Positions 11,449 to 39,111 of a stretch of 64,000 nt of DNA are shown here, piece by piece. The notes under the pieces were generated by a model. That model ran no database searches. It saw only the letters and a list, made by a program, of their open reading frames with translations, and was not told the DNA's origin. The stretch lies in contig JBAYUF010000002.1 of the NCBI GenBank assembly GCA_041675205.1, positions 1,731-65,730 on the forward strand, read 5' to 3'. Source of the stretch: Patescibacteria group bacterium (lineage in GTDB: Bacteria; Patescibacteriota; Patescibacteriia; GWA2-46-9). The translations under genes were made by a program, and so were the position numbers. Numbering within the stretch: position 1 is the stretch's first letter; every line of letters begins with the position of its first letter.

Positions 11449-11568
11449 ATAGGCTTACTTAGTGTACAGAACTATTCGTATGACCGCGCGACCACTTTGG
11501 CACCCTTCCACAGGTTTACTTAGAAACGTGCTTCGCACGCTACCATGACCGAACGTCTTCAACAAGCT

Positions 11569-19149: not shown

Positions 19150-19782
19150 ATGAGCGACCAGATCAGCACAACCACCAACCCCGTCGGCAGCTGCGTGCAC
19201 TGCAGCAAGCCAGCGACGGGTGGGAACTGGGAGAAATACTTCCGTGTGCCCTCAATGATCGAGATCGAGAACTTTCTCGAGGCGCAAGGAATGCCCCGGA
19301 TCGTTCAGGAGGAGCACCTGTTCATGGTGCTCGTTTGCTCGGTCTGCCGACCCGAACTCGAAGCGGCGGGCATGGCCTTCCACCAGGTCTGCTCCGCGCG
19401 CAGGCTGATCAAAGAGGACGAGGTCAGGCGGGCGGAACAGGTGAAGCGCGAGGCCGAAGCCAAGGTGAAGCGCGAAGCCCGCGAGGCCGAAGCCAAGGTG
19501 AAGCGCGAAGCCCGCGAGGCCGAAGCCAAGGTGAAGCGCGAACGGGCTGCGGCGACTGCTGCCCTCTTCGGCCACAAGCCCGATGAGCAGCGTCAGCGTC
19601 CGCACCGCACGGAAGTGATCGGACGCATCGAGCCGACCACCAGGCCGGTTGAACTGCCCCGCCATGTCCGAGGCAATGGCCAGTTCCGGAACTCCCCGTT
19701 CGCCGACATGGGACAGCCGCCCCGCAACGAGGAGCGAACCCACCCCAAGAGCGGAAAAAGGAACCGCGGCCACCGCTCCTGA
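19150..19782 (+). CDS. hypothetical protein: N-terminal Cys4 zinc-ribbon-like region plus Ala/Glu/Lys/Arg repeat coiled-coil
   Basis: GC-rich ORF with RBS GAGGTGA. It has CVHC...(40 aa)...CSVC. The 11-aa unit VKREAREAEAK occurs about three times, encoded by 33-bp DNA repeats. Confidence 0.5.
   Translation: MSDQISTTTNPVGSCVHCSKPATGGNWEKYFRVPSMIEIENFLEAQGMPRIVQEEHLFMVLVCSVCRPELEAAGMAFHQVCSARRLIKEDEVRRAEQVKREAEAKVKREAREAEAKVKREAREAEAKVKRERAAATAALFGHKPDEQRQRPHRTEVIGRIEPTTRPVELPRHVRGNGQFRNSPFADMGQPPRNEERTHPKSGKRNRGHRS
19441..19540 (+). repeat. 33-bp tandem repeat (about 3 copies; first copy is a shortened 24-bp form) GTGAAGCGCGAAGCCCGCGAGGCCGAAGCCAAG inside the CDS
   Basis: Units start at 19441, 19465, 19498 and 19531. 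Confidence 0.8.
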
Positions 19783-20218: not shown

Positions 20219-20261
20219 CGTGCCCAAGTCGCCACCCTGGCGACTACGGCCGAACAATTCC

Positions 20262-20312
20262 GAAAGGGCCCACACATCGTCAAGATGTTGTTCGGGCCCT
20301 TTCTTCGTTTTG
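20262..20312 (+). terminator. rho-independent terminator (AAAGGGCCC...GGGCCCTTT then U-run)
   Basis: 9-bp GC-rich stem with an internal ACATC/GATGT sub-stem, followed by TTCTTCGTTTTG. Confidence 0.5.
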
Positions 20313-20425
20313 AAAATTTTAAAACGACCAACTGACCAACGTTAGACAATTGACTGATGAGTATAATGCTGCTAATTTGCGGCCACGAACGAACGTTCAA
20401 AACTCGCAAGGAGCAAACCCCGACC

Positions 20426-22403: not shown

Positions 22404-22674
22404 AAGCTCTGCATTGTTATATATCTGCTGCTACAAGTAGCACTTCAGGGCTAGGCAGTAGCCTAGCATGGATTAACCACCAACAGCATCGTGGTAACCA
22501 GCGTATGAGATGCGACTGAAAGGGAAGTGATTACATGGTTAAGGTAACTTTTGATACGTCATTAACTTTAAAAACAGGTTAATCTTCTTGATCATCGTTC
22601 TTTTTAATTGGGGCTATTGACAGTTTTATTTATAAAGCTAAGGTGTGGGCACAAACCAAGGAGGTGGCACAACA

Positions 22675-22965
22675 ATGCCAACGCAAAGGTTCAACAACTA
22701 CCAACGAGGGGCCAATCGCCCCCTGAACGGTGAACGGTTCGGTGACAGTCGCCTTGAGTGGGTACTCGGTTGCAGCGGTACGCACCACGCCCGACTCACT
22801 GAACGAGTCGAAGTCGTGAACGACGAGGGGGTACCGTTCGTTCAACACAGCCGAACGCAGAAGGACATCAAGGTCACAACAAAGGGCCCCTGCGATGGTT
22901 CTTGTACCGGCCGGCAGGGAGGGGGCCACTTCTTCGCCGAAGTCGACTCAGTTGGCGACAGCTAA
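22675..22965 (+). CDS. hypothetical protein (GC-rich islet)
   Basis: 96 aa. ATG at 22675, preceded by AAGGAGG. There is an overlapping antisense ORF, so the strand choice rests on the RBS. Confidence 0.35.
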   Translation: MPTQRFNNYQRGANRPLNGERFGDSRLEWVLGCSGTHHARLTERVEVVNDEGVPFVQHSRTQKDIKVTTKGPCDGSCTGRQGGGHFFAEVDSVGDS

Positions 22966-23020
22966 CTGCTCGCACAACCCAAGACACATTTGGGTGTAGG
23001 GAGCCAACACAGAGAATCAT

Positions 23021-23058
23021 GAAGAGGGAACATGTGTCGTTCCCTCTTCATCTTTTTT
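23021..23058 (+). terminator. rho-independent terminator GAAGAGGGAAC-auguguc-GUUCCCUCUUC-UUUUUU
   Basis: 11-bp perfect stem followed by a T-run. Immediately precedes repeat A1. Confidence 0.7.
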
Positions 23059-23117
23059 AAAAAGTTTTGGAAACAAAAACACTCCCGTTGCACGGGGGAT
23101 GTGTATTGATTTTTAGC
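23050..23117 (+). repeat. island repeat A, copy 1 (approx. CTTTTTGAAAAGGTTTTGGAAACAAAAACAATCCCGTTGCACGGGATGTTTTGATTTTTAGCC)
   Basis: One of three direct copies (see 24994 and 27973). Each follows a GC-rich terminator hairpin, contains the small hairpin ATCCCG-TTGCA-CGGGAT, and ends in TTTTTAGCC. Confidence 0.8.
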
Positions 23118-23279
23118 CTTAGAGGGGCCACCAAGGGACGTGATACCCTACAACGGGTTATAAAATAAACCGACTCAAAGCCCCTAAATCCAACCCAGTT
23201 TGGGTCAGCAACATGCTTTGCCAGTGTCTAGCCTGATGGAAAGCTGTATACTTATAACAATATTAATGATTAGAATTTT

Positions 23280-23879
23280 ATGAATAATAAAGTGGTCTCA
23301 ATTGTCGTCGCCGTTTTGGTAACCCTTGGTCTTGCTTCAGGCGTCTATTTTATGGTGGGTAGTCCCTCCAAAACCGAGCTACAGGTTGACCAAGCAATTC
23401 AAATTGATACTCAAGAACAAGCCGAAACGGATTCAGCAAATGTGACTGAGCCATCAAAGTCCACCTCTCTAAAAATCCTACTAGCCTCAGGCCAACCTCA
23501 GCGCTGTCAGTTTATAGATTCCACTGATCCTTTTAAAACACAGGGCACCGTGTTTATAAATGGTGGAAAAGTAAGAGGAGACTTAATGTCCACAAGAGAT
23601 TCCAAAATAATGAAATTTCATATGATTGGCGATATGGAAACAAATTACGTTTGGGTTGAAGGGATGACAACCGGTGCTAAATCTACAGTAAAAAGTTCTT
23701 CCGCAGTTCCCGGCGATGATAAATGGCAAGGAATTGATAATGACAAAGAAGCCGACTACCGTTGCGATCCCTGGATAGTAGATAGCTCCTTATTTGTTTT
23801 ACCGACAAACATAGAATTTATTGACATGTCACGGCCGATCATAGATCAAGGACCAATCGGTTTGCCTAACAATAACTAG
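23280..23879 (+). CDS. hypothetical secreted/membrane-anchored protein
   Basis: 199 aa. N-terminal signal/TM VVSIVVAVLVTLGLASGVYFMV. No family recognised. Confidence 0.5.
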   Translation: MNNKVVSIVVAVLVTLGLASGVYFMVGSPSKTELQVDQAIQIDTQEQAETDSANVTEPSKSTSLKILLASGQPQRCQFIDSTDPFKTQGTVFINGGKVRGDLMSTRDSKIMKFHMIGDMETNYVWVEGMTTGAKSTVKSSSAVPGDDKWQGIDNDKEADYRCDPWIVDSSLFVLPTNIEFIDMSRPIIDQGPIGLPNNN

Positions 23880-23993
23880 CCGAGGAGTCTCGTCCTGAAC
23901 AGCCCCAAATACTTGCGCACGTTCGCACCTCTCGGCGCTCGACTGCGCTTTGACTGTTTCGTCCTTGCTCGTTCGAATTTTCTGCTTATTAAA

Positions 23994-24035
23994 TAAAAAA
24001 TACCTGGCGCTATGTCAGGTATTTTTTATTAGCCC
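23994..24035. terminator. hairpin AAAAATACCTGGCGCTATGTCAGGTATTTTTT, then TAGCCCTAG
   Basis: Stem TACCTG/CAGGTA with flanking A- and T-runs. The 9-mer TAGCCCTAG recurs at 29505. Confidence 0.55.
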
Positions 24036-24144
24036 TAGAAGGAAATAGTGAAGATTGGCACTCCGGAAGAGGACAGAACTATATTGACCGTCTATTAGAC
24101 CAAGAGTAAGGTGGCCGCACAACTGCAGAAGGAGGAACTGCTTT

Positions 24145-24639
24145 ATGCTCATTAGAATTGAATACTTAGGACAGTTCGTTGGTTGGCGCATTGATTGCGA
24201 CGGTTGCGGCGTCAAGGACGAACACGACCGCGGCCCGGAAGGTCAGATTCTCCTCGCACACAACGAGGAGAGGGAAGCCTACGATTCGGCCTCATGCACG
24301 GAGTGCGACAACAGCCCATGGATTCTCCGCGTCGGTGACGACGACCTCTGTGAGTCGTGTCGCAACGAGGGTCCGCTGACAGCCGATCAACGGCGCATCT
24401 ACGGCCACCTCCTCGATGCCGCCGTCGCCCACGAAGCCGACATACCAGTCAATGATCTACTCACTACCAGGTTAGCTGACACAACCCCTGCCATCGACGC
24501 TCTCCTAGCAAACGTGCTCGGAGCAACAAAATTGGAACCTCCCCAGGACGCCATGAAAATCAAGATACAACTCTTGGGGTCACCTCCTACTGTTGCGTGG
24601 GTACTCAGAAATGCCGCGCGCGGGCTTAAGGTGAGCTAG
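24145..24639 (+). CDS. hypothetical Cys-rich (zinc-ribbon-like) protein
   Basis: 164 aa and GC-rich. Strong RBS GAAGGAGG. Four Cys pairs: CDGCG...CTEC...CESC. Confidence 0.45.
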   Translation: MLIRIEYLGQFVGWRIDCDGCGVKDEHDRGPEGQILLAHNEEREAYDSASCTECDNSPWILRVGDDDLCESCRNEGPLTADQRRIYGHLLDAAVAHEADIPVNDLLTTRLADTTPAIDALLANVLGATKLEPPQDAMKIKIQLLGSPPTVAWVLRNAARGLKVS

Positions 24640-24672
24640 TGTCCTGAAAACGAAGGACCACAGGAGGAGCCA

Positions 24673-24924
24673 ATGAATAATAAGCGAGGAGATATAACCA
24701 AGCTACTAAGGAAACTGCGTGTAGCTGTCAAGGTAATCGAAGATTTTGACCTTCGTGCATTGCGGCGGGAACTGAAAGAAACACAAACAGAGATGGCTCA
24801 GATGCTCGGTGTTTCTCTGCGGACATACAGTACGTGGGAGAGGAAGGAGTCGAACACACCACTTCGAACGCTGAAATATCTCTGCACCCCAAGCAAGAAG
24901 ACGACCGCCAAACGCAAGCGATGA
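24673..24924 (+). CDS. XRE-family helix-turn-helix transcriptional regulator
   Basis: 83 aa with RBS AGGAGG. LRRELKETQTEMAQMLGVSLRTYSTWER is an HTH_XRE-type motif. Confidence 0.65.
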   Translation: MNNKRGDITKLLRKLRVAVKVIEDFDLRALRRELKETQTEMAQMLGVSLRTYSTWERKESNTPLRTLKYLCTPSKKTTAKRKR

Positions 24925-24950
24925 AAACAAGATAGGAACCGCCGAACGAA

Positions 24951-24999
24951 GAAGACCCGTGTGCATTGCAACTGCAGTGCCCGGGTCTTCGTTCTTTTT
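24951..24999 (+). terminator. terminator hairpin GAAGACCCG...CGGGTCTTC plus T-run, preceding repeat A2
   Basis: 9-bp stem with a 22-nt loop, then GTTCTTTTT. Confidence 0.55.
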
Positions 25000-25057
25000 G
25001 AAAAGGTTTTAAAAATAAAAACAATCCCGTTGCACGGGATGTTTTGATTTTTGTTAG
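24994..25057 (+). repeat. island repeat A, copy 2
   Basis: CTTTTTGAAAAGGTTTTAAAAATAAAAACAATCCCGTTGCACGGGATGTTTTGATTTTTGTTAG, near-identical to copies 1 and 3. Confidence 0.8.
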
Positions 25058-25089
25058 TAGAGTACTATCCTTTGGGTAAGGAGGATACC

Positions 25090-25248
25090 GTGAACACCAT
25101 CGAAGACTTGATTGGAATGATCTTTACCGCGGCCGCTGAAGAGGGGTGGCAACCAAATGGGGATACCTTGATGATAGTTGATCCTATCATCTATCGCCTG
25201 AAGCTCGTCGTCAAACCAGATGGCACCATGGTTTGGGAAGACGACTAG
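25090..25248 (+). CDS. hypothetical small protein
   Basis: 52 aa from GTG 25090, 6 nt after AAGGAGG. The track ORF 25051..25248 includes upstream non-coding sequence. Confidence 0.3.
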   Translation: MNTIEDLIGMIFTAAAEEGWQPNGDTLMIVDPIIYRLKLVVKPDGTMVWEDD

Positions 25249-25364
25249 ACCGCCGCCCATGCCCACCACTGAAGTCCGTCGGGCGCACAGCAAAAGATAG
25301 CTGTCGCGCTCGATGGGCTTCTTCATTTTCAAAAGTCAGCCCACCCTTTCAGGTTAGATTTTTT

Positions 25365-25410
25365 TAGCCTCACTCCCGCAGGGATCGTTCACAAAAAAAC
25401 GTGCTTATCC
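25365..25410 (+). repeat. island repeat B, copy 1: TAGCCTCACTCCCGCAGGGATCGTTCACAAAAAAACGTGCTTATCC
   Basis: Direct repeat of 27745..27790. It resembles the forward-strand image of the tRNA-Glu 3' end (TAGCCCCACGGGGAATCGAACC). Confidence 0.6.
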
Positions 25411-25492
25411 ATGTTTTTCATTGCGCAACTTGTCCTCGTGTAAGCATACAGAATCAGAGATTAATCAAATACTCAATTCTCTAATTCCACCC

Positions 25493-26860
25493 CTAAATAA
25501 GTTCAATTGCCACTTGTTTGAAAATATGAACTATGTTGCTGAAATCTTGCTCTGATTCAATCCCTGCAGCTATTCTGACGGTTCTTTTGTCCATACCATA
25601 GTTTGAAAGCCATGTTTTTTCATGCCCAAAACTTGAACCTAAACCAACGCTTTCACCGGCGAGATCTTTAACTCTTTGTATAAACTGCTCTCCGGTAATT
25701 TTTTCTGGCACTGTTACATAAAATAAGGTAACGGCTCCCTCTGGTGCCAATTCCTGCACAAGCTCATTTTGTTTGTGCGTGGGTAAGTTTGGGTGGGAAA
25801 CCTCAAGGCCTGTTATTCCACTTAACGCTTCAGCAAGTTGCAGTGCATTCCGTGCATGATTTTTCATTTTTCCGGCCATCGTTTCTGAAATACTATCTGG
25901 AATTTTTCTTTCATCAGTCGGCTGTAAATATGTTCCTAGTTCGATTCTCCTTGTCTTAATTGCCCTCGTTTTCTCGTCATTATCAGAATATGCAACCCCT
26001 AAGGTTATTTCATTTGCCCCCTCCTGGTAGTGCTTCGTTCCGCTTTCAACAATAACCTTCTCAACATTAAACTTTTTTAGAACTTGTAATGGATTTATTA
26101 ATACTGGTGACGGCAACGTATTGTCAATAATTACAGATAATTTTTCGCGACTATCTCCAGTCACTCGCTTCACCATCCGCTCAAGTTCGCGTACCACTTC
26201 TTCGCGAGCAAGCTCGGTATCCTGCTCAATGCACCTTACGGCTTTACGAAATACAAAAGGATTCTGACCGACTCGGTATTCCTCTATCGAAGCCAAAATG
26301 ATGGCCTGCGTTTCTGCTGATAGCCCAGTAAGATTTTTTCTCTTCTCACAAAACTTGGTCAATATTTTTTCTGACGTTCTATTTTCTTGATAATCCAGAT
26401 TTGTCGTTTGCACAATTTCCCCGACCCCCTCGAGATCGGTTACTTCCATACCTTTAGAATTTGCAACTGTTTCAACCACTATCAGTCGAGGTTTTTCTCT
26501 CTCAACAAGTTCCCGCAAAGCTGCAAGATCGGTGGAGTCAAAAATAACTACCCGTATCCCTAGACCTTCTAACGACTGAATGTCTTTTTTTGTGGTGTCA
26601 TAAATAGCATCAGCACAAAATACTACATCGCCAACCTTCAAACCTTCTGCCGCAATGGCTGAGTGCATCGCAGCTGCTCCAGAATTAAAAAGGGCAACAT
26701 CAGATGCCCCCTCAATCATTTTAGTTAACTCCGCCTCTCTTTCTTGAAGCTCTTTATAATTATAGCGGGCGTAACCAACCTCGTTAATTTCTTCATTAAA
26801 TTGTCCCATGGTCTCGAATTCTGCAGCAATCTTCGGTTGTTTAAACGAACTCTCCGGCAT
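25493..26860 (-). CDS. Cys/Met-metabolism PLP-dependent enzyme family protein (transsulfuration/sulfhydrylase fold) with an ~75-aa internal insertion
   Basis: 455 aa. Family blocks present: SGAAAMHSAI, IVVETVANSKG, SVIIDNT...VESGTKHYQEG (PLP-Lys motif S.TK...GH-like), GESVGLGSS...RIAAGIESEQD. The extra segment lies between the VETxxN block and the IIDNT block. Confidence 0.6.
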   Translation of the reverse strand: MPESSFKQPKIAAEFETMGQFNEEINEVGYARYNYKELQEREAELTKMIEGASDVALFNSGAAAMHSAIAAEGLKVGDVVFCADAIYDTTKKDIQSLEGLGIRVVIFDSTDLAALRELVEREKPRLIVVETVANSKGMEVTDLEGVGEIVQTTNLDYQENRTSEKILTKFCEKRKNLTGLSAETQAIILASIEEYRVGQNPFVFRKAVRCIEQDTELAREEVVRELERMVKRVTGDSREKLSVIIDNTLPSPVLINPLQVLKKFNVEKVIVESGTKHYQEGANEITLGVAYSDNDEKTRAIKTRRIELGTYLQPTDERKIPDSISETMAGKMKNHARNALQLAEALSGITGLEVSHPNLPTHKQNELVQELAPEGAVTLFYVTVPEKITGEQFIQRVKDLAGESVGLGSSFGHEKTWLSNYGMDKRTVRIAAGIESEQDFSNIVHIFKQVAIELI

Positions 26861-26861
26861 A

Positions 26862-27701
26862 CTACTTCGTCAATTTAATAACCGGCATATTCCGAGTAAA
26901 CTCATGCGATGTAAACAACCACTCGATTTTTTTAAAACCGGCGGCTTCAATTTCTTTTTGAATTTCCTCTTTTGTTACGTAACTACGAAACTTTGTACCT
27001 GCAGCCATTGAAATTAGTGGTTGGATGTCCGTATAATCTTCGTCGCTAATTTTCCCCTGCTCATGAATTTTTTTTATGACCTCACGAGCTTTAGGATAAT
27101 CTAGATACCCTTGTTTATCAGCACAATAAATATAAAGAGGAACCTCCAAATAACTGAACAGTCGATACGGTCTACTGGAAACTAACCCCCATTTACTTAC
27201 CACTTCTATCAACTCGCCATTGTTCTCGGGGAATAACACGTTACCTCGACAGAAAAAAACACCGCCAACTTTCAAAGAATCATACATTTTTTGAAACAGT
27301 AGCCGAACCTGATCTCCCCGTATGACGTTGAAAGGACGATGCCCTAATATATAGTCAAAATAATTCTGATAGTTTATCTGAAGCCAGTCTGCTTCAATAA
27401 AATGTTCTTGTTCAAATTTTTCCTCAGCATAGGAAGTCAGCGCATCGAAATTCTCTTTCGCAAAATCAACAACATAAGGATGGGTACCAAGTTTTTTGCA
27501 TAGCGACCTATATTCTATAGTGGAACCAAGTATCATTACGTTGATATCCGACGGTGGTACACCAGAAGCTAGTATTTCTTTCTTTTCTATTTCCAACTCC
27601 TCGTCGTCTGGTCGAGCTGGTATTGGATATTTGTCCCACAGCTCGGCATAGCTCCAGCTCGCCTTTGTTTCATCAATTTCTCTACTTTTTAGCATATACA
27701 C
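26862..27701 (-). CDS. hypothetical protein, possible class-I SAM-dependent methyltransferase fold
   Basis: 279 aa. It appears translationally coupled to the PLP enzyme (stop and start 1 nt apart). VMILGSTIEY...VVDFAKEN...LKVGGVFFC loosely fit MTase motifs I, post-I and III. Confidence 0.35.
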   Translation of the reverse strand: MYMLKSREIDETKASWSYAELWDKYPIPARPDDEELEIEKKEILASGVPPSDINVMILGSTIEYRSLCKKLGTHPYVVDFAKENFDALTSYAEEKFEQEHFIEADWLQINYQNYFDYILGHRPFNVIRGDQVRLLFQKMYDSLKVGGVFFCRGNVLFPENNGELIEVVSKWGLVSSRPYRLFSYLEVPLYIYCADKQGYLDYPKAREVIKKIHEQGKISDEDYTDIQPLISMAAGTKFRSYVTKEEIQKEIEAAGFKKIEWLFTSHEFTRNMPVIKLTK

Positions 27702-27744
27702 TAACTTAATACTTATGACTTAATTATACCTTAGTTCTGACAGT

Positions 27745-27790
27745 GTCCCCACTCCCACAGGAATCGTTCACACGAAAGCGTGCTCACTCC
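27745..27790 (+). repeat. island repeat B, copy 2: GTCCCCACTCCCACAGGAATCGTTCACACGAAAGCGTGCTCACTCC
   Basis: Direct repeat of 25365..25410. Together the two copies bracket the minus-strand two-gene operon. Confidence 0.6.
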
Positions 27791-27930
27791 CTTTGGTCGT
27801 TGTGCTGCTTGTATTTACGGGGCGAATCTCACCACGGTTCAATTTCTCAGAATGGGAGGAAGAAATAAAAGCCCCTAATAGGGCCATATTAATAGGTTTA
27901 CAAAGAACGGTTTAGGAGTTTACAAAAGAG

Positions 27931-27978
27931 GAGAGACCCGCACCATATCACTGGTGTTCCGGGTCTCTTCTTCTTTTT
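27931..27978 (+). terminator. terminator hairpin GAGAGACCCG...CGGGTCTCTTC plus T-run, preceding repeat A3
   Basis: 10-bp stem, then TTCTTTTT. Confidence 0.55.
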
Positions 27979-28036
27979 GAAAAGGTTTTGGAAACAAAAA
28001 CAATCCCGTTGGACGGGATGTTTTGATTTTTAGCCC
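27973..28036 (+). repeat. island repeat A, copy 3
   Basis: CTTTTTGAAAAGGTTTTGGAAACAAAAACAATCCCGTTGGACGGGATGTTTTGATTTTTAGCCC, followed directly by repeat C1. Confidence 0.8.
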
Positions 28037-28105
28037 AAGTGGGTGCGCATTGGAACTCTATTGTTTTGGAGCTGAGAGAATGGTTGAGGTTTGGGGAGGA
28101 GATGA
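28031..28105 (+). repeat. island repeat C, copy 1 (TAGCCCAAGTGGGTGCGCATTGGAACTCTATTGTTTTGGAGCTGAGAGAATGGTTGAGGTTTGGGGAGGAGATG...)
   Basis: ~90% identical to 29503..29578. The track ORF 28023..28259 is probably a translation of this repeat. Confidence 0.7.
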
Positions 28106-28270
28106 AAGCCTTAGATTTTCAAAAGGAAGTGGTGCAAATTGGTACTCCGTAGCGGGAGTGGAACTAGGTCCTGTAAGGTGGAAAACTTTCTTGGCTTTAG
28201 TAAGGGAAGTATATTTTTCAATTACTGAAATTCCGCAATTATATAACCATGCCCCTTAAAACAGAATTAG

Positions 28271-29217: not shown

Positions 29218-29262
29218 AAAGAAAAAACCTGGCGCACAGCCAGATTTTTTCTTTTAGCCCCA
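29218..29262. terminator. hairpin AAAAAACCTGGCGCACAGCCAGATTTTTT followed by TTTTAGCCCCA
   Basis: Stem CTGGC/GCCAG flanked by A- and T-runs. The following TAGCCCCA matches the tRNA-Glu 3'-end image 8 of 8. Confidence 0.5.
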
Positions 29263-29502
29263 TCCTTCGTCGCTAAGCTTCTCAGGACAAGCGGGGAATT
29301 CCGACGCCCTTCGTCGCCAGCAGTGCGACTCAGTGCTCTGTCCTGGGCAGCGCTTGATGCTTCGCCTGCTCACATCCATCGGCGCTCGCGGTATTCGTGA
29401 TTTCTTCCGAAATCACTCAGCGCTCGCTGCTGCCCGTTCGATTCCCACGCGGGGAAGCACATACCAAAAAAGCACCCCTCACAAGGAGAGATGCTTTTTT
29501 GG

Positions 29503-29578
29503 TAGCCCTAGTGGGTGCGCATTGGAACTCTATTGTTCTGGAGCTTAGAGAATGGTTGCGGTTTGGGGAAGATATGGA
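29503..29578 (+). repeat. island repeat C, copy 2 (TAGCCCTAGTGGGTGCGCATTGGAACTCTATTGTTCTGGAGCTTAGAGAATGGTTGCGGTTTGGGGAAGATATGG...)
   Basis: Direct repeat of 28031..28105. It is preceded by TGG, so the junction reads TGGTAGCCC, the same 9-mer that opens the forward image of the tRNA-Glu CCA end (TGGTAGCCCC at 38306-38315). Confidence 0.7.
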
Positions 29579-29641
29579 AAAGGATGCTTTGGCCAAGGAA
29601 ATGACCTTGGCGGCATAGTCCCTCATGGGAGTAGAACACCA

Positions 29642-30505
29642 CTATTCAGCAGGTGGAGCACTAGGTGATATATCTACCTCTTTATCGGACAGTGCTTTTT
29701 CGAATACACCGATAGCTTCATAAACGGCATCTAGCGTAACTATTTTTGACAGGCCTAGATGGCCTTCCACTAACTCAAGTATTTTATTCTCGGTCATAGC
29801 CGCTTCACTGTGCTTTGTTTGCCAGTAATAATGTGTGGCTATACCTATTAGGTAGGCACGATTTATTGATTTTGTCCCTTGGATAGAAACAACTTGTGGT
29901 TTGCAAAAAACTGGTCCGCCGCTATTACCCGGGAAAACTGGGGCATCAAGGTATAAGATTGAGTTTTTGGCAAGCTCGGGGTCTCGTCTCGCTATAATGC
30001 CCGATCTACAGATAGCGTAGTTTTTGTTTTCACCGCGCATTCCAAGTGGAAATCCAAGAAAAAAAATTTCATCACCAACAGATAAGCCCACCTCATCAAA
30101 TTGCTCAGGACGGAGTCCTGTTTCAGTGTCGAGGATACTGACAAAATCAATTTCATTTTCTTCAAGAGTTTCTTTGTCGAGTGGAATTACAGCAACATCT
30201 TTACCTGATTCAGGACAAAAAAAGCTCCTTAGACCTGGTGCGCGATGAGTCGGAATGGAAAATTTCTGTGCAATCGCTTCGCCGTTTTTATCAAATCTTA
30301 GGTACAATTTTTCAAACCCATCACGCTCAATATCAATTAGAACATGCGCGGCCGTTACTAAGAATAATTGACCAGAATAACGTTCGCCCTCTTTATTATA
30401 TACTCTGAATAATAAAAATCCCGTGCCGCGGCATTTCGCCTCTTGGCCCTCGATAACTTCAATTGAAACGACTGATTTCAAAAAGGCTGGTGGAAGCAAG
30501 GCCAT
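29642..30505 (-). CDS. trypsin-like (S1/chymotrypsin fold) serine protease
   Basis: 287 aa. The catalytic triad context is LVTAAHVLID (His), DVAVIPLD (Asp) and FPGNSGGPVF (Ser). No signal peptide is obvious. Confidence 0.75.
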   Translation of the reverse strand: MALLPPAFLKSVVSIEVIEGQEAKCRGTGFLLFRVYNKEGERYSGQLFLVTAAHVLIDIERDGFEKLYLRFDKNGEAIAQKFSIPTHRAPGLRSFFCPESGKDVAVIPLDKETLEENEIDFVSILDTETGLRPEQFDEVGLSVGDEIFFLGFPLGMRGENKNYAICRSGIIARRDPELAKNSILYLDAPVFPGNSGGPVFCKPQVVSIQGTKSINRAYLIGIATHYYWQTKHSEAAMTENKILELVEGHLGLSKIVTLDAVYEAIGVFEKALSDKEVDISPSAPPAE

Positions 30506-30638
30506 ATCAAATTCTATCGTTTTATTAGTGTAGGGCTAACTCAAGAGACCAAACAACATCTTTCCAACTATAAAAACCACAATCAAACCCACTCAATTAG
30601 CTTGTCTTTAGAAGTAACAAAAGGCACAGAACATTCTA

Positions 30639-31232
30639 CTAGCCAAAAGGAGGAAGTACTACTCTGTTTTCAATTTTTTTCACCCACTGATCAGCCAGCA
30701 TTTTTATCCTAAGTACCTCTTGATTCAAGACAGCTAAATCAAAGTCTTCGTTTACAAAAGTGAAGTGCATCGTTCTAGGGTCATAGTGACTAACAAAAAC
30801 TATATTATTTATTTGAAACGCTAATCGGGAACCAATATTATATGTCCCGATATTAGTATCGGGACCATATTTGCCAATCCAGCCCTTTAGCCGCTCATCA
30901 TAATGTTCCAGATGATTACGGAATTTTCGTTTATGGATTAGAGATTTTTTATCGACTCCCAACACTACTCCAATTGAGAAGACATCCTTCTGGACAAAAA
31001 AACGATGCCACCACCTTGAAAGGATATTGTTCCGTTGTTCTGTTGCTTTCAGCATTTTTGAAACCATTGCACAGTGGGACAAAAAGGAATGAATGGCAAT
31101 AAAAATTATGTCATTACTAGCCTGGTGCGGCTTTTGCAAATACGAATACATGATCCCCGCAAATTTTGCTTGTGTTGAAATCTCCCTTATAGACATCTCT
31201 ATCCAAAGATCTTTGGAAGTTTTTTTTATCAT
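30639..31232 (-). CDS. hypothetical protein (defence-cassette member)
   Basis: 197 aa, co-directional and tightly spaced with the neighbouring genes. No family recognised. Confidence 0.4.
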   Translation of the reverse strand: MIKKTSKDLWIEMSIREISTQAKFAGIMYSYLQKPHQASNDIIFIAIHSFLSHCAMVSKMLKATEQRNNILSRWWHRFFVQKDVFSIGVVLGVDKKSLIHKRKFRNHLEHYDERLKGWIGKYGPDTNIGTYNIGSRLAFQINNIVFVSHYDPRTMHFTFVNEDFDLAVLNQEVLRIKMLADQWVKKIENRVVLPPFG

Positions 31233-31241
31233 ACCAAAATA

Positions 31242-32039
31242 TCACCGTAACATTTTTTGATTTATATAGTGCAATAAAGAACGCGCACTATTTATAACAA
31301 GCATAGCTTCCGCCTCTGCGAGCAAGCTATTGTTGGGGTGAGCGAGACTGGATTGATTGCGAAACGTATTCATTGCATCAAGTATTGATGCGAAAGATTT
31401 CAAAACTCGATCCACGTCATGTGATCGTGTAACTTCAGAAGTAAAAGCTGGATGCTTTGTTCTCAATATTTTGAAAAATTCCGTAATACTCTTGTTATCC
31501 GTTTCCGCTACTCCCATTTCTTCACATAAATTTTTCATGTAGCCATGCAATGCTGTGTGGGCCCTATCCATGGCGCTGATCGGACCATTTGTGGCCAAGA
31601 GATTCTCGGCATCAAGCAGTGCACGATCAACAACAGCCGTCGTATTATGAGGTTTTGGTGTTGAAACTGGTGCAGGAACATCAACTAATTCTGGATAAAT
31701 ACAAATAAAACGAATAAAAGGCCCCCCGACCTCACTTATACAATAAGCAACATGCATGAAAGCCTCCTCATCTTGCTGGGTTGTTTTCAGGGCACCCATT
31801 TCTTCATAATCATCCAGTGGTACCGTTGCATGCAAAACATAAAAGTCATCGCCAAAATAATTAGAACCTTCACTTATCGAAAACGGTATCAAGGATAACA
31901 ATTCTGCTGCACGAGACTGTCCTCGACGAAGCAACAAGCGGGCAGCATTCGTGGCGATACGTTGCCATCGTTCCTCGGGCATAGGTTCACCGACAAGTTC
32001 AAATCCAGATGCACCACTGCCTTGGTATAAAAGTATCAT
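31242..32039 (-). CDS. hypothetical protein with a C-terminal Abi_C-like (abortive-infection C-terminal) motif
   Basis: 265 aa. The C-terminal ...FRNQSSLAHPNNSLLAEAEAMLVINSARSLLHYI resembles the conserved R-N-x3-AH(G/P) core of the Abi_C domain. Low certainty. Confidence 0.35.
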   Translation of the reverse strand: MILLYQGSGASGFELVGEPMPEERWQRIATNAARLLLRRGQSRAAELLSLIPFSISEGSNYFGDDFYVLHATVPLDDYEEMGALKTTQQDEEAFMHVAYCISEVGGPFIRFICIYPELVDVPAPVSTPKPHNTTAVVDRALLDAENLLATNGPISAMDRAHTALHGYMKNLCEEMGVAETDNKSITEFFKILRTKHPAFTSEVTRSHDVDRVLKSFASILDAMNTFRNQSSLAHPNNSLLAEAEAMLVINSARSLLHYINQKMLR

Positions 32040-32064
32040 CGCAGTTTATGTGCAAAAGAATTTT

Positions 32065-33282
32065 CTACTCACTAATAGCAGAAAGTATCCGTTGGCGCTT
32101 GATAAATCTATCCAGTAACGGGATACCGAGGCGATACTTACCATACCGAGTTCGGTAAATAAGGCCGTCAATAACGAGCTTTGCAAATATTTGACTTGCG
32201 TGGCTTGAACTAATAGGGCTCTGGAGCAGCCTTCCCCATTGCTCAACTACCTCCTTTACTGTGAATTCATCTTGGCAGTTGTCTAATGTAGACATAACAG
32301 ACAGTAATTCTCGTTCCCTGTCGGTGGCGTTATTCCAGCGCGCTGCAAAGAAGTCTATATCAAGCTTGGCTATTATTTCTTCAAGGGGAACGCTCGGATC
32401 ATTCCTTCCTTGTGTCATCTGGCTCAAAAAACTATTGAATGCTTCCCGACAAAGAAACTGAATGAAATAAGGATAACCACCCGACTCTTTCACAATTATT
32501 CCTACTGACGTATCGCCAAATGTTACGGGACAGTTTTCCCTTTGTATCGGTTTTAGAACCGCTTCTCTGCTCTCTGTGTCAGAGAGACCATGAAGCTCTG
32601 TCACCTCAAACATGCGCTCCGCGTAAGTCCTCGCATCAACCAAACGCTGCTGAAGCGTTGGAAGACCAACGAGAACAAGTAGTAAGGGATAACCTCTTTT
32701 TTGTAACGATTGAAAAACCTCTAAAAGTACTGACAACGGATACTGTCCTTCTTTCCCTTGATCACTCATTTTTTGTGCCTCATCGTAAGCGATTACTATT
32801 CCTTTTACTTGAGGGCTAGCTTTTTTTACATTATTCCAAACAAATTCGAGTGTACTTCGAAGTTTGTCTGACACCAGCCCTGGCTGACCATTGTAATATT
32901 CAAGCAATGCAGCGTAGTCTAGGGAAACTTCGTCTGTTTCCCCGCCAAAACCCATCTTGTCCTTTTGTCCCTTGAGTTGCGATGTAATAATCGAGAGGTC
33001 AGTCAATATTCTTGTAGCAATGGTGTTTTCTGAAACACTAGCCGACTCAGAAAGATCGGTACCTGCCCAAAGCCACTGATTCACAAGAGCGACGGGTTTG
33101 AAGCTATCGACGAGAACGGTCTTGCCCGTACCACGTAGGCCAGTCAGAATCATGTTTTTCATAATGACCTCCTGCTGGAGCAAGTTTATGAATGCTTGTT
33201 TTTCAGGGTCACGACCAGCCAAGTAAGGAGGCGGTTGACCAGCGCCGGGGCGGAAGGGGTTCAGAAAAGGTTCCTGTGTCAT
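32065..33282 (-). CDS. P-loop NTPase, AAA/Arch_ATPase (DUF234-type) family
   Basis: Walker A ILTGLRGTGKTVL and Walker B IVIAYDEAQ. The N-terminal FLNPFRPGAGQPPPYLAGRDPE and a C-terminal winged-helix-like tail are typical of ORC/Cdc6-like standalone ATPases. The start was chosen at MTQEPF (33282). The track ORF runs to 33342. Confidence 0.6.
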   Translation of the reverse strand: MTQEPFLNPFRPGAGQPPPYLAGRDPEKQAFINLLQQEVIMKNMILTGLRGTGKTVLVDSFKPVALVNQWLWAGTDLSESASVSENTIATRILTDLSIITSQLKGQKDKMGFGGETDEVSLDYAALLEYYNGQPGLVSDKLRSTLEFVWNNVKKASPQVKGIVIAYDEAQKMSDQGKEGQYPLSVLLEVFQSLQKRGYPLLLVLVGLPTLQQRLVDARTYAERMFEVTELHGLSDTESREAVLKPIQRENCPVTFGDTSVGIIVKESGGYPYFIQFLCREAFNSFLSQMTQGRNDPSVPLEEIIAKLDIDFFAARWNNATDRERELLSVMSTLDNCQDEFTVKEVVEQWGRLLQSPISSSHASQIFAKLVIDGLIYRTRYGKYRLGIPLLDRFIKRQRILSAISE

Positions 33283-33603
33283 AGAATGAGTAACTTTTAT
33301 AATATTACTAATTCTAGATGTTTCACTAATTCTTGTCAACAAACTAAATGTTTGTAGAACTTATACTTGGCCAATTTTATAGAAATAGGCCATAATGATT
33401 GCGACAATTGAATTGCCTAAACCACTGGGTAACCAGCGGCATGGCAAGAAATCCCACAACGATACTGAACCCCGTGTTCAGCGACTCGTTGTGGGTCATA
33501 TCCCGAAAGGGGTATGGGGCAGAAAGGCTCAGCTGGCGCGGGGCTCTGTGTTGCACCCCAAGCGCCTTGCTACCTACAAGTCGCTTATTTTTATTTTATT
33601 CAC

Positions 33604-34374
33604 ATGGACAACCAATCAACTTCGGGAAGTATCAAAAAACCCTTTTGGCAGCAGTTATGGTTTCTCGTGCCTATGGCTGTTTTGTTACTCATTATCGTTA
33701 GTGCAGCGAACTCTTTGGAAAAAACGAGTGATCAATATTCAGGACCAGTGCAAGCGATGGTTTTTGATTTACCTCCACTCATAGGCAAAACAATAGATGA
33801 AGTTGTAACTGCACTCGGAGAACCAACAGCAGAGGAGGAACCAACAGCAGAGCAAAAGAAGGTTGGGTATACAGAAGGCACAGTAAGCTACGAACACGAG
33901 GGTATCACGCTAATGGTCAACTTTGATGTGCTTACTCGAAAAGTAAATGATTTCTATGTCAGCCCGCCCGGTATAGAGCCGGTGCAAAACATTACGGCTC
34001 TCTTGCAAGCAGCTAATCTCAGAGAAGAAACAACTGATTCATATGTGGTGAGTAGTGTTTCAGCCGGAGACAAAAAAGATGCTGGCTACTCTGGTATTGT
34101 CGTCATTACGAAAGAAGATGCGGAGCGCAAAAATACTATTCAGAAACAGTTTAGCGCGTGGGATGGTTCCCACATCAAACTTACTCGAGTCATCAAAGAT
34201 TCGATGCATGATCCTGATAGCTATGAACACGTAAAAACAACATACGTGGATAAAAGTGACCACCTCATCGTCACCACAACGTTCCGAGGCACGAATGCTT
34301 TTGGTGGCAAAATCTCCAATACTGTAAGCGCTAAGGTCTCCGTCCAGGGAGACGTTATCGAAATACTTGAGTAG
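33604..34374 (+). CDS. hypothetical membrane-anchored protein
   Basis: Start at ATG 33604. N-terminal TM FWQQLWFLVPMAVLLLIIV, then a soluble domain. Unknown family. Confidence 0.45.
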   Translation: MDNQSTSGSIKKPFWQQLWFLVPMAVLLLIIVSAANSLEKTSDQYSGPVQAMVFDLPPLIGKTIDEVVTALGEPTAEEEPTAEQKKVGYTEGTVSYEHEGITLMVNFDVLTRKVNDFYVSPPGIEPVQNITALLQAANLREETTDSYVVSSVSAGDKKDAGYSGIVVITKEDAERKNTIQKQFSAWDGSHIKLTRVIKDSMHDPDSYEHVKTTYVDKSDHLIVTTTFRGTNAFGGKISNTVSAKVSVQGDVIEILE

Positions 34375-34409
34375 TAGGCGTATACTGTGGGGTATAACCT
34401 AAGAAATCT

Positions 34410-34631
34410 ATGGGCTACATACTAAAGCAGTACTTGATCACTTTCGGCTGGGCACTTACCGGCGCTATTTCTATGGCGTTTGCGCTCGGCATTCTCGCCA
34501 AAGTCTTTTCTTGGCTTACCCCGATAGATGAGTGGGAGGAACTCAAAAAAGGGAATTACGCTGTAGCTATCGTATTTGGGGCAACTATTCTTGGTGCAGC
34601 CTTTGTTATTGCACACATCGTTACAGGCTAA
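34410..34631 (+). CDS. DUF350-family small membrane protein
   Basis: 73 aa with two TM helices. LKKGNYAVAIVFGATILG is typical of DUF350. Confidence 0.5.
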   Translation: MGYILKQYLITFGWALTGAISMAFALGILAKVFSWLTPIDEWEELKKGNYAVAIVFGATILGAAFVIAHIVTG

Positions 34632-34633
34632 AA

Positions 34634-35008
34634 ATGAAGCGTAGAGCAGCTATTGCAACCGTCCTGGTCATAATGGCACCGACGCTTGCTTGGGCACACC
34701 CAGGACGCACTGATGCCAACGGGTGCCATACCAACAAGAAAACGAGCGAGTATCACTGCCACGGGGCTCCAGCAACAACATCTGCACGTACGGATGCGCC
34801 AGTTGCCGCTCGAGAAACCGCGCGAGCTACGTCGCCAAGCGTTGAACCAAGCGCTGCCGTTTGTAATTTTGACCTCTATAACTGCAGTGATTTTGCTAGT
34901 GGAGAAAAGGCGCAAGCAACCTTTTTAGTCTGCGGAGGAATAAATAAAGACATTCATCAATTAGACAAAGACAATGACGGCCTTGCTTGCGAAGAACTGA
35001 GCAACTAA
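34634..35008 (+). CDS. secreted Excalibur calcium-binding domain protein
   Basis: Signal peptide MKRRAAIATVLVIMAPTLAWA. The C-terminal DKDNDGLACE is the Excalibur DxDxDGxxCE motif. Cys-rich. Confidence 0.7.
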   Translation: MKRRAAIATVLVIMAPTLAWAHPGRTDANGCHTNKKTSEYHCHGAPATTSARTDAPVAARETARATSPSVEPSAAVCNFDLYNCSDFASGEKAQATFLVCGGINKDIHQLDKDNDGLACEELSN

Positions 35009-35066
35009 AGAACTAGGAATTACGTAATCTTTTTGTGCGAATGTCAAGTAAAAACCGGACACAACC

Positions 35067-35164
35067 GGACAGTATCTGACACTTTTACAACATTTTGACT
35101 CCATATCCGACAGTACCCGACACTATTAGGATATTCTGATTAGAAATTAGACAGTAATAGACAC
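35067..35164 (+). promoter_or_regulatory. three phased iteron-like direct repeats RGACAGTA-N2-3-GACAC (35067, 35108, 35148), ~40 bp apart, upstream of 35187
   Basis: GGACAGTATCTGACAC, CGACAGTACCCGACAC and AGACAGTAATAGACAC. There are additional CCGGACA half-sites at 35055 and 35065. Confidence 0.5.
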
Positions 35165-35186
35165 AATTACCGGGAATTGCCGAATT

Positions 35187-36368
35187 GTGACGCCCAAACT
35201 TCTAAGTCAAACAAGAACAATGGTAAAAGGTGACGCCGCTAAATCATTAGAGAATCTACCTTACTTCGAAGATTACGAAGTCTATGCTCTTTGGAAGTAT
35301 CTCAACGGAAACCTAACGGGTCGACCGGTTTTTCAATTAGTCGACTTATTGGGACCAGGAAACAGTTACCTATCACTGTACGTACTACTACACAACCTAA
35401 ACCAGTGGGGCATAACACTTGAAAATCCAACTTTTGATCGTAAGGGGCATAGATGGTTTTATAAAAAACATCGCACCAAAAAAGAGAGCGAGGCGAAAAA
35501 CTCGCTGAATAACATCTACAAAAATAAGTTCAACTTGGTTGACATAGTGGCCGCGTTTCCTGTTGCTCAGCAACAACGTATGCTCGCTTGGATAGAGTTC
35601 AAAAAAGAGCTGAGCGACAGCAACCGTCAAATCTTGAACTCATTCTTAGGGCGCTATATGGATCTGTTTGTACACGATCAACTAAAGTTGCGGGAAAAAA
35701 GCTTCTACACTTTTGAGCGGCAGATAGAGAAGCTTCTAATGCTACTTCGTGAACGATCTAAAGATTTTGGCAAAGAATTTGTTTTTGAGTACGCACCTCC
35801 AAGAGACGAAGATGGTCTTTCTATCTACTCTCCTTTTCTATTTACTCATTCCATGGTCGCGGCATCGACACTCGGCCTGGTGAAAGTGACGGAAGCCTGG
35901 GTACAAGATGAAGCACCGCCTAAAAGGCAGCGCCACAGCTATAAAATTAGACTTACTATTACTGAAGTAGGCAGTGAGAAGATAAATGAACTAGCTGAGA
36001 AGGTGGTTGGCAAAAGGACTATTATGAAAAACAGCGACGGACTATTTACATATCGAGGGGCACCGCTAAACGTAACCCTTGGTACTAATTATGCACGCGC
36101 TTTTGATATTCTTCTGTCGGACTTCCCTCAGGGAGGTTTTGTTCCTTATGACGTTCTAGAAAATCTATTGATACAAAACGGTTTTGAGCCGAGCAAGAAC
36201 AACGAACAACGCAACAAGAGAATCAATAACTTGCTTAGTGTAGACCAGGGGTTTTTCCGATATGCAAAGTTGAACAACAAAAAGCTTCCTAACAGTGCAG
36301 CGGATGGTAAGTCTATTATCCATATACGCCGAGGAAAGGGTATAGAATTTTACAACCCAGAGATCTAA
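35187..36368 (+). CDS. hypothetical protein (possible replication-initiator/DNA-binding protein served by the upstream iterons)
   Basis: 393 aa with no recognisable catalytic motif. Its position directly downstream of the iterons and upstream of the recombinase suggests a Rep-like role. This is inference. Confidence 0.3.
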   Translation: MTPKLLSQTRTMVKGDAAKSLENLPYFEDYEVYALWKYLNGNLTGRPVFQLVDLLGPGNSYLSLYVLLHNLNQWGITLENPTFDRKGHRWFYKKHRTKKESEAKNSLNNIYKNKFNLVDIVAAFPVAQQQRMLAWIEFKKELSDSNRQILNSFLGRYMDLFVHDQLKLREKSFYTFERQIEKLLMLLRERSKDFGKEFVFEYAPPRDEDGLSIYSPFLFTHSMVAASTLGLVKVTEAWVQDEAPPKRQRHSYKIRLTITEVGSEKINELAEKVVGKRTIMKNSDGLFTYRGAPLNVTLGTNYARAFDILLSDFPQGGFVPYDVLENLLIQNGFEPSKNNEQRNKRINNLLSVDQGFFRYAKLNNKKLPNSAADGKSIIHIRRGKGIEFYNPEI

Positions 36369-36396
36369 AACCATTCCACTTGGTTCCGACTGGGGA

Positions 36397-36424
36397 CAGC
36401 TCAAAACTGAGCTGTTTTTTTATT
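36397..36424 (+). terminator. rho-independent terminator CAGCUCA-aaacu-UGAGCUG-UUUUUUUAUUU
   Basis: 7-bp stem plus a long U-run, 29 bp after the stop. Confidence 0.65.
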
Positions 36425-36819
36425 TGTTTACTTGGTTTTTGAAGACAAAAAAGAAACTGAAAACTAAACCAAGTGGAAGTATTACAAGGTAGGGTAAGGA
36501 TAGGCTTGCAATAACTTTTTTCAGGAAATTTATTGCAACCAGGTGACGTCACACTTATTCAGCCGCTGGCGCGTCACCTCGCTGGCGGCTGATGTGTTTT
36601 GAGATGCTTACTCTAGAACAATGCCGAAAAATTGATCCCTCTCTTGCTGATATAACAGACGAAGAGTTGTTACGCATTAGGGAAAAACTACAAGCTGTTG
36701 CGCTGCTTGCGTTTGAGGATTTTGTAAAAGAAAACGGACTAAAATCAGGACCATAATAAGAGTTTGAAATATCCCGCTTGGGTACTCACTAATTCTTATT
36801 TTCAGGGTAATGTATAAAT

Positions 36820-38346: not shown

Positions 38347-38380
38347 AAGGGCAGCGTCCTAACCGTTAGACGATGAGGCC
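38306..38380 (-). tRNA. tRNA-Glu (anticodon TTC), CCA encoded
   Basis: The reverse complement is GGCCTCATCGTCTAACGGTTAGGACGCTGCCCTTTCACGGCGGAAATCGGGGTTCGATTCCCCGTGGGGCTACCA. It folds as a cloverleaf (acceptor stem with two G:U pairs), with anticodon loop CUUUCAC and TpsiC loop TTCGATT. Confidence 0.8.
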
Positions 38381-39009: not shown

Positions 39010-39111
39010 CACATCCACCCTCCATCGTGTGGTGCCACACTTATAGCTCATCAATTAAAGACCGTCAATGCTAATTGCGACGATGCACATGAACCCGTAT
39101 ACTCGGGTCAT

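Follow-up and report, generated by a model that had tools for sequence, protein, structure and literature searches.

Terminator repeats beside a tRNA-Glu gene of a Patescibacteria group bacterium as probable integration scars of serine-recombinase elements

Introduction

Between an M23 peptidase gene and a gene for tRNA-Glu(UUC) in a Patescibacteria group bacterium lies an intergenic sequence of about 60 bp, here called element A, that recurs three times within 5 kb. It was met in a stretch of 64,000 nucleotides (the window; GenBank assembly GCA_041675205.1, contig JBAYUF010000002.1, positions 1,731 to 65,730 of the forward strand), in which a gene for a large serine recombinase (LSR) runs into that same tRNA gene. 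A first-pass annotation, made from the letters of the window, had offered two readings of the repeat: a terminator joined to a promoter and operator, or an arm of the attachment (att) sites of integrating elements. We think it likely that element A is DNA that natively lies just downstream of tRNA-Glu(UUC) and was left at the integration scars of LSR elements. Little is known of the mobile DNA of candidate-phyla-radiation bacteria, and on this interpretation a repeat that looks regulatory would let one read how elements integrated again and again at a single tRNA gene of such a bacterium.

Results

Element A is a repeated terminator block

The three copies reported in the first-pass annotation are real and share one orientation (A1, 23052-23118; A2, 24993-25057; A3, 27973-28035; all on the + strand), with pairwise identities of 77.5% (A1/A2), 88.1% (A1/A3) and 85.1% (A2/A3). 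The consensus given there is essentially copy A3; it does not describe A1, which has TTAAAA for TTGAAA and a 2-nt insertion in the hairpin, and A2 ends in ...TTTTTGTTAG where the consensus has ...TTTTTAGCC. The common layout is GAAACAAAAACAA-TCCCG-TTGCA-CGGGA-TGTTTTGATTTT, then TAGCC, and the inner hairpin (hp2) folds alike in all three copies, at about -12 kcal/mol. A 17-mer pattern from this hairpin, ATCCCGTTGCACGGGAT, allowed up to three mismatches, matched all three A sites on the + strand; it gave six matches in total against 0.12 expected, a number reached in none of 100 shuffles. A covariance model built on the block recovered, in the 64-kb window, the three A sites alone at 98-122 bits, the next-best site being unrelated (13 bits, E about 0.9). 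Rfam gave no match at any A copy at E <= 1 in a search of the region 18000-40000.

As had been noted, each copy is preceded by a strong GC-rich hairpin (hp1) and then a T-run. In A2 and A3 these upstream hairpins are homologous too (24945-25052 versus 27925-28031, 81%), which makes the repeat unit about 110 bp for these two copies, and the homology of hp1 also spans A2, A3 and one copy in a related genome (L010_1), although the upstream genes differ. Both hairpins of all three A copies form a stable GC-rich stem-loop with a U-run on both strands; hp1 and hp2 are predicted intrinsic (factor-independent) terminators. Other direct repeats are nested in the same 6.5 kb: repeat B (25368-25433 and 27747-27812, 76%) and repeat C (28017-28107 and 29490-29579, 87% identity). 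On the other side of the M23 gene there is a partial A-like sequence (20252-20350, +), with a hairpin GAAAGGGCCC..GGGCCCTTTC and then TTCGTTTTGAAAATTTTAAAAC; it is without hp2 and without the TAGCC core, and scores 13 bits with the model.

A tRNA-end core and a displaced recombinase tail

In A1 and A3 the T-run leads into TAGCC, and the same order is found after four more terminators, at 24030, 25365, 29255 and 29503; all six terminator-TAGCC sites share the + strand and a span of 6.4 kb. The 3' acceptor end of tRNA-Glu, GGGCUA(CCA), has TAGCC(C) as its antisense: at the intact tRNA gene the + strand reads ...CATTTGG followed by TAGCCCCACGGGGAATCGAACCCC. The junction nearest the tRNA (J6; Table 1) and the attR site at the tRNA share TTTGGTAGCCC, and A1 and A3 share TAGCC(C); A2 is without the core. 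An exact search for the core AAAAACANTCCCGTTGNACGGG in genome, metagenome and viral collections that do not contain the genome of the window returned two chance matches, both in coding sequence and neither viral.

The open reading frame (ORF) of the LSR crosses this core and ends inside the tRNA as ...EKYHLVAPRGIEPRFPP before its stop, the last 13 codons (...HLVA, then PRGIEPRFPP and stop) being the antisense of the tRNA. On the right-hand side of TAGCC, both at 28031 (C1) and at 29503 (C2), a peptide ...LVGAHWNSIVLELREWLRFGE... is encoded, and C2 prolongs the LSR frame from TTG GTA GCC as LVALVGAHWNSIV.... The C peptide is, on this evidence and on that of the homologues below, the native C-terminus of the LSR family.

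Homologues of the LSR number 577 at E <= 1e-30, and we read the C-terminal tails in the best 120 of them (P0122-P0241). In 100 of these 120 the sequence ...LVA is followed by a G[IVF]EP-type tRNA-antisense tail (e.g., PRGIEP); the variants GIEPR, GVEPL, GFEPE and GIEPV suggest that different tRNAs are used. Eleven of the 120 have a long form of 523-555 amino acids (aa) and run on in frame as ...LVALVGKSWNRIV.../...LVALVGRNWDTLLAELNEWHRFGEE..., and the sequence reconstructed from the LSR and C2 aligns with P0202 and P0177 without a gap across the joint. One related contig of 18 kb (L019), which is without a tRNA, carries a long-form LSR gene together with genes for a relaxase, a TraG-like protein and a primase; its LSR ORF contains CTAGTAGCCCTAACGGG (core GTAGCCC), without a hairpin on the left. 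We take L019 for an unintegrated, plasmid-like relative in which attP would be seen inside the ORF. The reading frame through the core, the long-form homologues and L019 together point to an attP inside the recombinase's own gene, with a predicted crossover within GTAGCCC. Excision of the element that adjoins the tRNA would yield a predicted attP, GAAAAATACCATTTGGTAGCCCTAGTGGGTGCGCATTGG, and a predicted attB, GAGAGATGCTTTTTTGGTAGCCCCACGGGGAATCGAACC.

The best NCBIfam matches of the window's LSR are CcrB and CcrA, far under the cut-off (93 versus 900 bits), so the enzyme is not a Ccr. Five small ORFs of the C kind came out of a full HMMER scan of 1.84 billion representatives; relatives of C were not found in viral contigs, and a chimeric LSR-plus-C query in a word-index search returned the window's own 73-aa ORF only. 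With its synonymous third-position changes in WLRFGED, C was also considered as an independent micro-protein gene of about 38 aa; this is ruled out, since long-form recombinases carry C as their C-terminus.

The stop codon of C starts a tail of 22-27 nt, TAG-TCCCACAGGGGAGTAGAAC, that is like the antisense 3' end of tRNA-Glu (window, 28150-28170 and 29616-29640; L010, - strand, 4011-3985 and 1029-1003; L018, 634-655). This likeness reaches significance in L010, L012 and L018 (z 2.1-5.2) and is weak for the copies in the window. The tail looks like a second half-site of the tRNA-end type, roughly 110 nt away from the core. A decayed full-length tRNA in the region after each C remnant, which takes in a promoter-like leader (TTGAC-N17-TAAGGT), was rejected, because only the 22-27 nt tail is significant (z at most 5.2) and the rest gives z < 1.5.

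These surroundings bear on what kind of repeat element A may be. Being short, hairpin-rich, intergenic and multi-copy, it could be taken for a small dispersed repeat (like repetitive extragenic palindromes or miniature inverted-repeat transposable elements) or for a local intergenic duplication, unconnected with site-specific recombination. We regard this as highly improbable: the three copies lie within 5 kb, with none elsewhere in the 64 kb by BLAST or covariance model; the core scans of public collections gave only the two chance coding matches; terminal inverted repeats and target duplications are lacking; and A1 and A3 abut the tRNA-end core, while A3 and the L010 copies abut the recombinase-tail remnant, A2 having lost both.

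An array of attL-type junctions

Read with this core and tail, the interval from the M23 peptidase gene to tRNA-Glu (22.4-38.3 kb) appears to be an array of at least seven attL-type junctions in one orientation (Table 1). From the M23 gene the order is J1, J2, A2, J3, J4, J5, J6, the live element and tRNA-Glu. Decay of the junctions tends to grow with distance from the tRNA, the exception being that C1, in J4, is better kept than J5; the trend fits accretion at the tRNA-proximal side.

Table 1. Positions of element A, of the junctions beside it and of the associated recombinase and tRNA genes in the window
Feature	Positions	Strand	Description
hp1 of A1	23012-23058	+	GC-rich hairpin and T-run, -23.6 kcal/mol; predicted terminator of the upstream + strand 96-aa ORF (22675-22965)
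A1	23052-23113	+	AT-rich spacer, hp2 (23079-23102), T-run; on the - strand a predicted terminator behind the tRNA-end remnant; covariance model 98 bits
J1	23114-23165	+	TAGCC core behind A1 and degenerate putative element-side arm (LALEGPPRDVIPYNGL, stop)
J2	24000-24112	+	Terminator (24000-24029), TAGCCC core (24030), C remnant with internal deletion (KEIVKIGTP fragment)
hp1 of A2	24944-24994	+	-31.1 kcal/mol; predicted terminator behind XRE gene (24673-24924)
A2	24993-25057	+	Spacer, hp2 (25018-25045), T-run; core lost (GTTAG), recombinase-tail remnant deleted; 110 bits
J3	25325-25433	+	Terminator-like hairpin, T-run, TAGCC (25365), repeat B1; B2 (27747-27812) is a 76% copy
hp1 of A3	27924-27977	+	-30.2 kcal/mol
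A3	27973-28030	+	Spacer, hp2 (27997-28024), T-run; 122 bits
J4	28031-28152	+	TAGCC core behind A3 and C1, putative displaced recombinase gene 3' end (LAQVGAHWNSIVLELREWLRFGEEMK..., stop), element-side (P') arm
J5	29222-29502	+	Terminator, TAGCCCC (29255), GC-rich noncoding unit K5, second terminator
J6	29503-29618	+	Core (TTGG)TAGCCC and C2, intact putative displaced recombinase C-terminus (LVALVGAHWNSIVLELREWLRFGEDMEKDALAKEMTLAA, stop); predicted attL of live element
Live integrative element	29503-38305	+	8.8 kb, apparently complete; PDC-S45-like protease, AbiJ-like protein, AAA ATPase, LOOT RNA
LSR gene	36820-38346	+	PF00239 (5.9e-31), PF07508, PF13408; reads into tRNA-Glu
tRNA-Glu(UUC), intact	38306-38380	-	Predicted integration target, attR side

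The composition of the region is a mosaic. Between 18 and 38 kb the G+C content ranges from 0.34 to 0.68, alternating from cassette to cassette between 0.39 and 0.60, and the genes come in small unrelated sets: XRE, a PLP enzyme with a methyltransferase, VIT1, a trypsin-like protease, Abi_C and an AAA ATPase. Near-identical contigs with the same arrangement are present in an ENA sample (ERZ27247358; 186 kb, 99.8% identical) and in a Logan sample (SRR6484325). In relatives tRNA-Glu lies 2.3-7 kb from the M23 peptidase gene upstream, versus 16 kb here, which marks the interval as a variable zone. When cargo proteins were compared with those of L010, L012, L015, L019 and others, the recombinase alone was shared.

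The LOOT RNA (RF03000) of the live element, at 33414-33530 (+), scores 88.1 bits against a gathering score of 46.4 (E 8e-16) and lies between the AAA-ATPase gene and a 286-aa ORF. A promoter-like leader, TTGAC[ACT]-N16/17-TAAGGT and then AAGGAGG, stands before three unrelated genes: two GC-rich genes of the window (about 22620-22675, 96 aa; 24085-24145, 164 aa) and a 129-aa gene of L010 (- strand, 4925-4866).

Native tRNA-Glu flanks in relatives

Unoccupied tRNA-Glu genes of relatives have the same terminator beside them: AAACAAAAA, a stem that varies in sequence and pairs nonetheless, and TTTTGATT. In L011, which is unoccupied, this reads AAAACAAAAAG-CGGAGT-TTTAA-ACTCCG-ACTTTTTGATTGG, followed by TACCGCC, and in L012 it reads AAATAAAAACAC-CTCGC..GCGAG-ATATTTTTATT, followed by TAGCCCC. 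The hp2 part of A matches these native terminators of L011 and L012 in architecture, A-run and T-run, and the stems differ; the remnant-adjacent terminator of L015 matches it likewise. L015 has the whole series of hp1, spacer, hp2 and T-run beside a TAGCCCC remnant, and there an hp1-like hairpin would terminate a convergent gene. Element A is thus terminator DNA homologous to native flanks of tRNA-Glu.

Junctions of terminator, TAGCCC and C peptide also occur in L010, L012, L015, L018 and L020/L021. L010 has three of them in 3.2 kb, with wholly different cargo and with C pieces twice; one of its copies, kept outside the training of the covariance model, was recovered by it at 34.7 bits. A stable hairpin (-8.5 to -22 kcal/mol), in most cases between an A-run and a T-run, stands before every TAGCC site but attR and the attP of L019; the recombinase-side arms are without a hairpin. 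The palindrome takes many forms across homologous sites (ATCCCG/CGGGAT, CTCCCG/CGGGGG, CCCCACC/GGTGGGG, CCACCC/GGGTGG, CGGAGT/ACTCCG and CTCGC/GCGAG). In 15 of 17 sites of the chromosomal (B) arm, from six genomes, the stems differ and yet pair, L010_2 and the tRNA flank of L015 being the exceptions; this is a plain count and no formal test of covariation.

The first-pass annotation had proposed, as one reading of element A, a cassette of terminator, promoter and operator; the terminator is well founded, and the other two parts do not hold. In its full form the proposal is that A combines a terminator with a sigma-70-type promoter, its 17-bp palindrome serving as operator of an XRE repressor, and insulates or drives the genes downstream. 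A promoter-like TTGAAA-N16-AACAAT is indeed present in A2 and A3, the palindrome has half-sites 11 bp apart centre to centre that overlap the putative -10, and the end of an XRE/HTH_3 gene lies 70 bp upstream of A2. The promoter match, however, reaches just 9 of 12 positions and only in these two copies; the -35 is TTAAAA in A1, and the motif is missing from the homologous blocks of L010 and L015. The stem sequence of the supposed operator varies freely across homologous sites while its pairing is kept, which is what a terminator stem would do and not a sequence-specific operator. A U-run follows the hairpin on both strands, A3 is followed by the 3' end of the convergent VIT1 gene with no co-directional gene downstream, and promoter-like matches are not clearly enriched in the region (26 versus 19.2 +/- 4.1 expected). 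A promoter and operator in element A therefore seem very improbable to us.

K5, a noncoding GC-rich unit some 150-250 nt long, is shared by four genomes and in every case lies between two terminator-plus-TAGCC sites (window, 29255-29502 and 23877-24029; L018, 305-520; L012, 3400-3548). Its conserved blocks are GTCCnGGGCAGCGC, TCGGCGC and CTCGCTGCTGCCC-GTTCGATTC, and in L012 it stands directly downstream of the native tRNA-Glu. Rfam gave no match for K5, and neither strand showed a convincing consensus structure.

Other features of the window

Named homologues of the window's M23 peptidase come from Parcubacteria, Veblenbacteria and Uhrbacteria, with at most 68% identity outside its own cluster. 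A tRNA-Ser(CGA) gene (11361-11449, -) is flanked by perfect direct repeats (11117-11168 = 11291-11342, 52 nt; 10963-10987 = 11195-11219, 25 nt), and its 5' part is contained in a 91% repeat (11428-11462 and 11489-11523); these repeats (10963-11523) may be another tRNA-associated rearrangement or integration scar. The TsaD gene (38836-40251) encodes 471 aa versus 350-355 aa in four relatives, its Pfam match falls in two stretches, and TGGCAAATGGC-type repeats occur at 39522-39615, all of which suggests an insertion inside an essential gene. A very GC-rich ORF, whose G+C content rises to 0.68, holds at 19447-19545 a 33-nt tandem repeat that codes for (REAEAKVKREA)n; two of its three copies are identical and the other is at 91%. 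Between the window and the near-identical ENA contig there is a difference of about 33 nt, so that the copy number of this repeat may vary.

Discussion

Our favored explanation is that a family of mobile elements in Parcubacteria inserts, by means of an LSR, at the very 3' end of tRNA-Glu. Integration would swap the last 35 or so codons of the recombinase gene (...LVA, then LVGxxWNxIVxELxxW..FG...) for about 13 codons that the antisense strand of the tRNA T-arm supplies (...LVA, then PRGIEP...), and the displaced gene tail, C, would stay at the far end of the element, in attL. Each unit of hp1, A with hp2, T-run, TAGCC and C would then be an attL-type junction made of a chromosomal (B) arm, the tRNA end and the P' arm of the element. 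Element A lies to the left of the core and hence in the chromosomal, attB-side, position. It would be a pair of intrinsic terminators set back to back: on the - strand hp2 would terminate tRNA-Glu, and on the + strand hp1 would terminate the convergent neighbor gene (the 96-aa ORF at A1, the XRE gene at A2). The suggestion that A might be an att-proximal arm was therefore essentially right, with the correction that the arm belongs not to the element but to the attB side of the chromosome, the terminator region of tRNA-Glu. We infer that the junctions arose from serial LSR integration (accretion) followed by decay. The recombinase probably contacts only the 20-25 bp of A beside the core, and the remainder would be conserved by descent and by its role as a terminator.

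Several observations sit uneasily with this explanation. All inner junctions have left arms of the terminator, that is, the chromosomal type, where simple accretion would leave recombinase-gene sequence. The three copies of A have different upstream genes and so cannot all be one ancestral flank, and A2 is without the TAGCC core. Half-sites of LSR att sites are only about 20-25 bp long, and recombination by itself leaves conservation over 60-110 bp unexplained. Neither an empty site nor a different array turned up in any strain, and the two other samples of the organism are arranged alike. There are three ways in which several B-type arms might come to stand in one array: (i) donor attL blocks may have been imported by homologous recombination; (ii) partial excisions may have regenerated attB; or (iii), a rather unlikely course, the enzyme acts on attL-type sites, as it would in an integron-like platform.

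The last of these amounts to a different account of the locus. The units of A, core and C would be live sites at which the serine recombinase, with or without a directionality factor, captures and releases cassettes that have no recombinase of their own. Such cassettes would have core and C arm at one boundary and a terminator block (A or a hairpin like it) at the opposite one, and their circles would join the terminator block to the C arm, for example ...GTTTTGATTTT of A3 through TAGCCC to C2. At least seven junctions of one type and orientation do part units of 0.25-2.7 kb whose cargo is unrelated and whose composition differs; this junction type occurs three times in L010, where the cargo is entirely different; B-type arms at all inner junctions are not expected from ordinary accretion; and hp1 of A2, A3 and L010_1 is homologous despite different upstream genes. 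On the other side, large serine recombinases of the phiC31/Bxb1 type are not known to join two attL-type sites, several junctions have decayed (A2 no longer has the core, and J2 and J3 have deletions of C), and the three samples of the organism show no cassette polymorphism. That the array consists of such live sites we judge unlikely, and we are equally doubtful of a working cassette platform in which the exchange of recombinase C-termini (native tail when free, tRNA-antisense tail when integrated) is the switch of direction.

If scars of integration at tRNA-Glu are what element A records, the consequences reach beyond this locus. Across the LSR family attP, attB and the crossover region could be read from the C-terminus of the protein: a G[IVF]EP-type tail would mark a copy integrated at a tRNA, and a ...WNxIVxEL..W..FG tail a free copy. 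Many candidate pairs of serine integrase and att site might be obtained in this manner without experiments. The exchange also raises the idea that the state of integration is sensed through the enzyme's own tail. Searches of the literature found no description of such a recombinase family, which is absence of evidence only.

Among known arrangements, the array may be compared first with structures defined by their hairpins. Like integron attC sites, it has structured, sequence-variable hairpins and a short conserved core that bound cassettes in one orientation; unlike them, it has no R''/R' GTTRRRY cores, and its own core, TAGCC, is a tRNA end and lies outside the hairpin. No tyrosine recombinase domain, as expected of an IntI-type enzyme, was present in the ORFs scanned around the array, and for want of this domain and of GTTRRRY/RYYYAAC cores membership among integron attC sites is ruled out. 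The hairpins also recall bidirectional intrinsic terminators between convergent genes, with their GC-rich stem, flanking A-run and T-run and conserved pairing; ordinary terminators of this kind, unlike A, are not repeated as homologous blocks of 60-110 bp attached to tRNA-end remnants.

Integrative and conjugative or mobilizable elements (ICE/IME) of streptococci are known to accrete in tandem, together with decayed remnants of the CIME type, at the 3' end of a tRNA or housekeeping gene (PMC5357655). The array shares with them tandem elements and remnants at one target gene, repeated att-derived separators, a recombination module at one end and a tendency of the units to be more decayed further from the tRNA. 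Single-site accretions of intact elements have been described for tyrosine integrases, whose att sites have a long identical core, and the serine integrases of IMEs nearly always insert within genes and disrupt them (PMC5357655). A tRNA 3' end is an unusual target for a serine integrase, these enzymes mostly choosing the interior of protein-coding genes in the literature searched (PMC5357655). Unlike the ICE/IME accretions, the array combines a large serine recombinase, a target at the terminus of a tRNA gene and a repeated arm that is a terminator of chromosomal type.

The composite islands of staphylococcal cassette chromosome mec (SCCmec) are built by Ccr large serine recombinases at the 3' end of rlmH/orfX. 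There, as here, a serine recombinase is associated with a tandem array at one site, with direct repeats at the boundaries and cargo without recombinases; the target in the window is a tRNA and not rlmH, and its repeats are terminator blocks of about 60-110 bp versus integration-site sequences of about 15-20 bp in SCCmec. The integrase of the Sulfolobus virus SSV1, an archaeal tyrosine recombinase, has its gene split in two large parts by integration into a tRNA gene. The likeness to our element lies in an attP within the recombinase coding sequence, a tRNA target, proteins that differ between the free and integrated forms and a gene fragment at the other end of the element; the difference is that the bacterial serine recombinase of the window would only exchange its last 35 or so residues for about 13 that are encoded by the antisense of the tRNA. 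The array belongs to none of these three, neither ICE/IME accretion nor SCCmec nor the SSV1 type. It is of an ordinary kind, that of att-associated direct repeats at a tRNA integration hotspot, in a variant that is unusual and, as far as can be told, previously undescribed.

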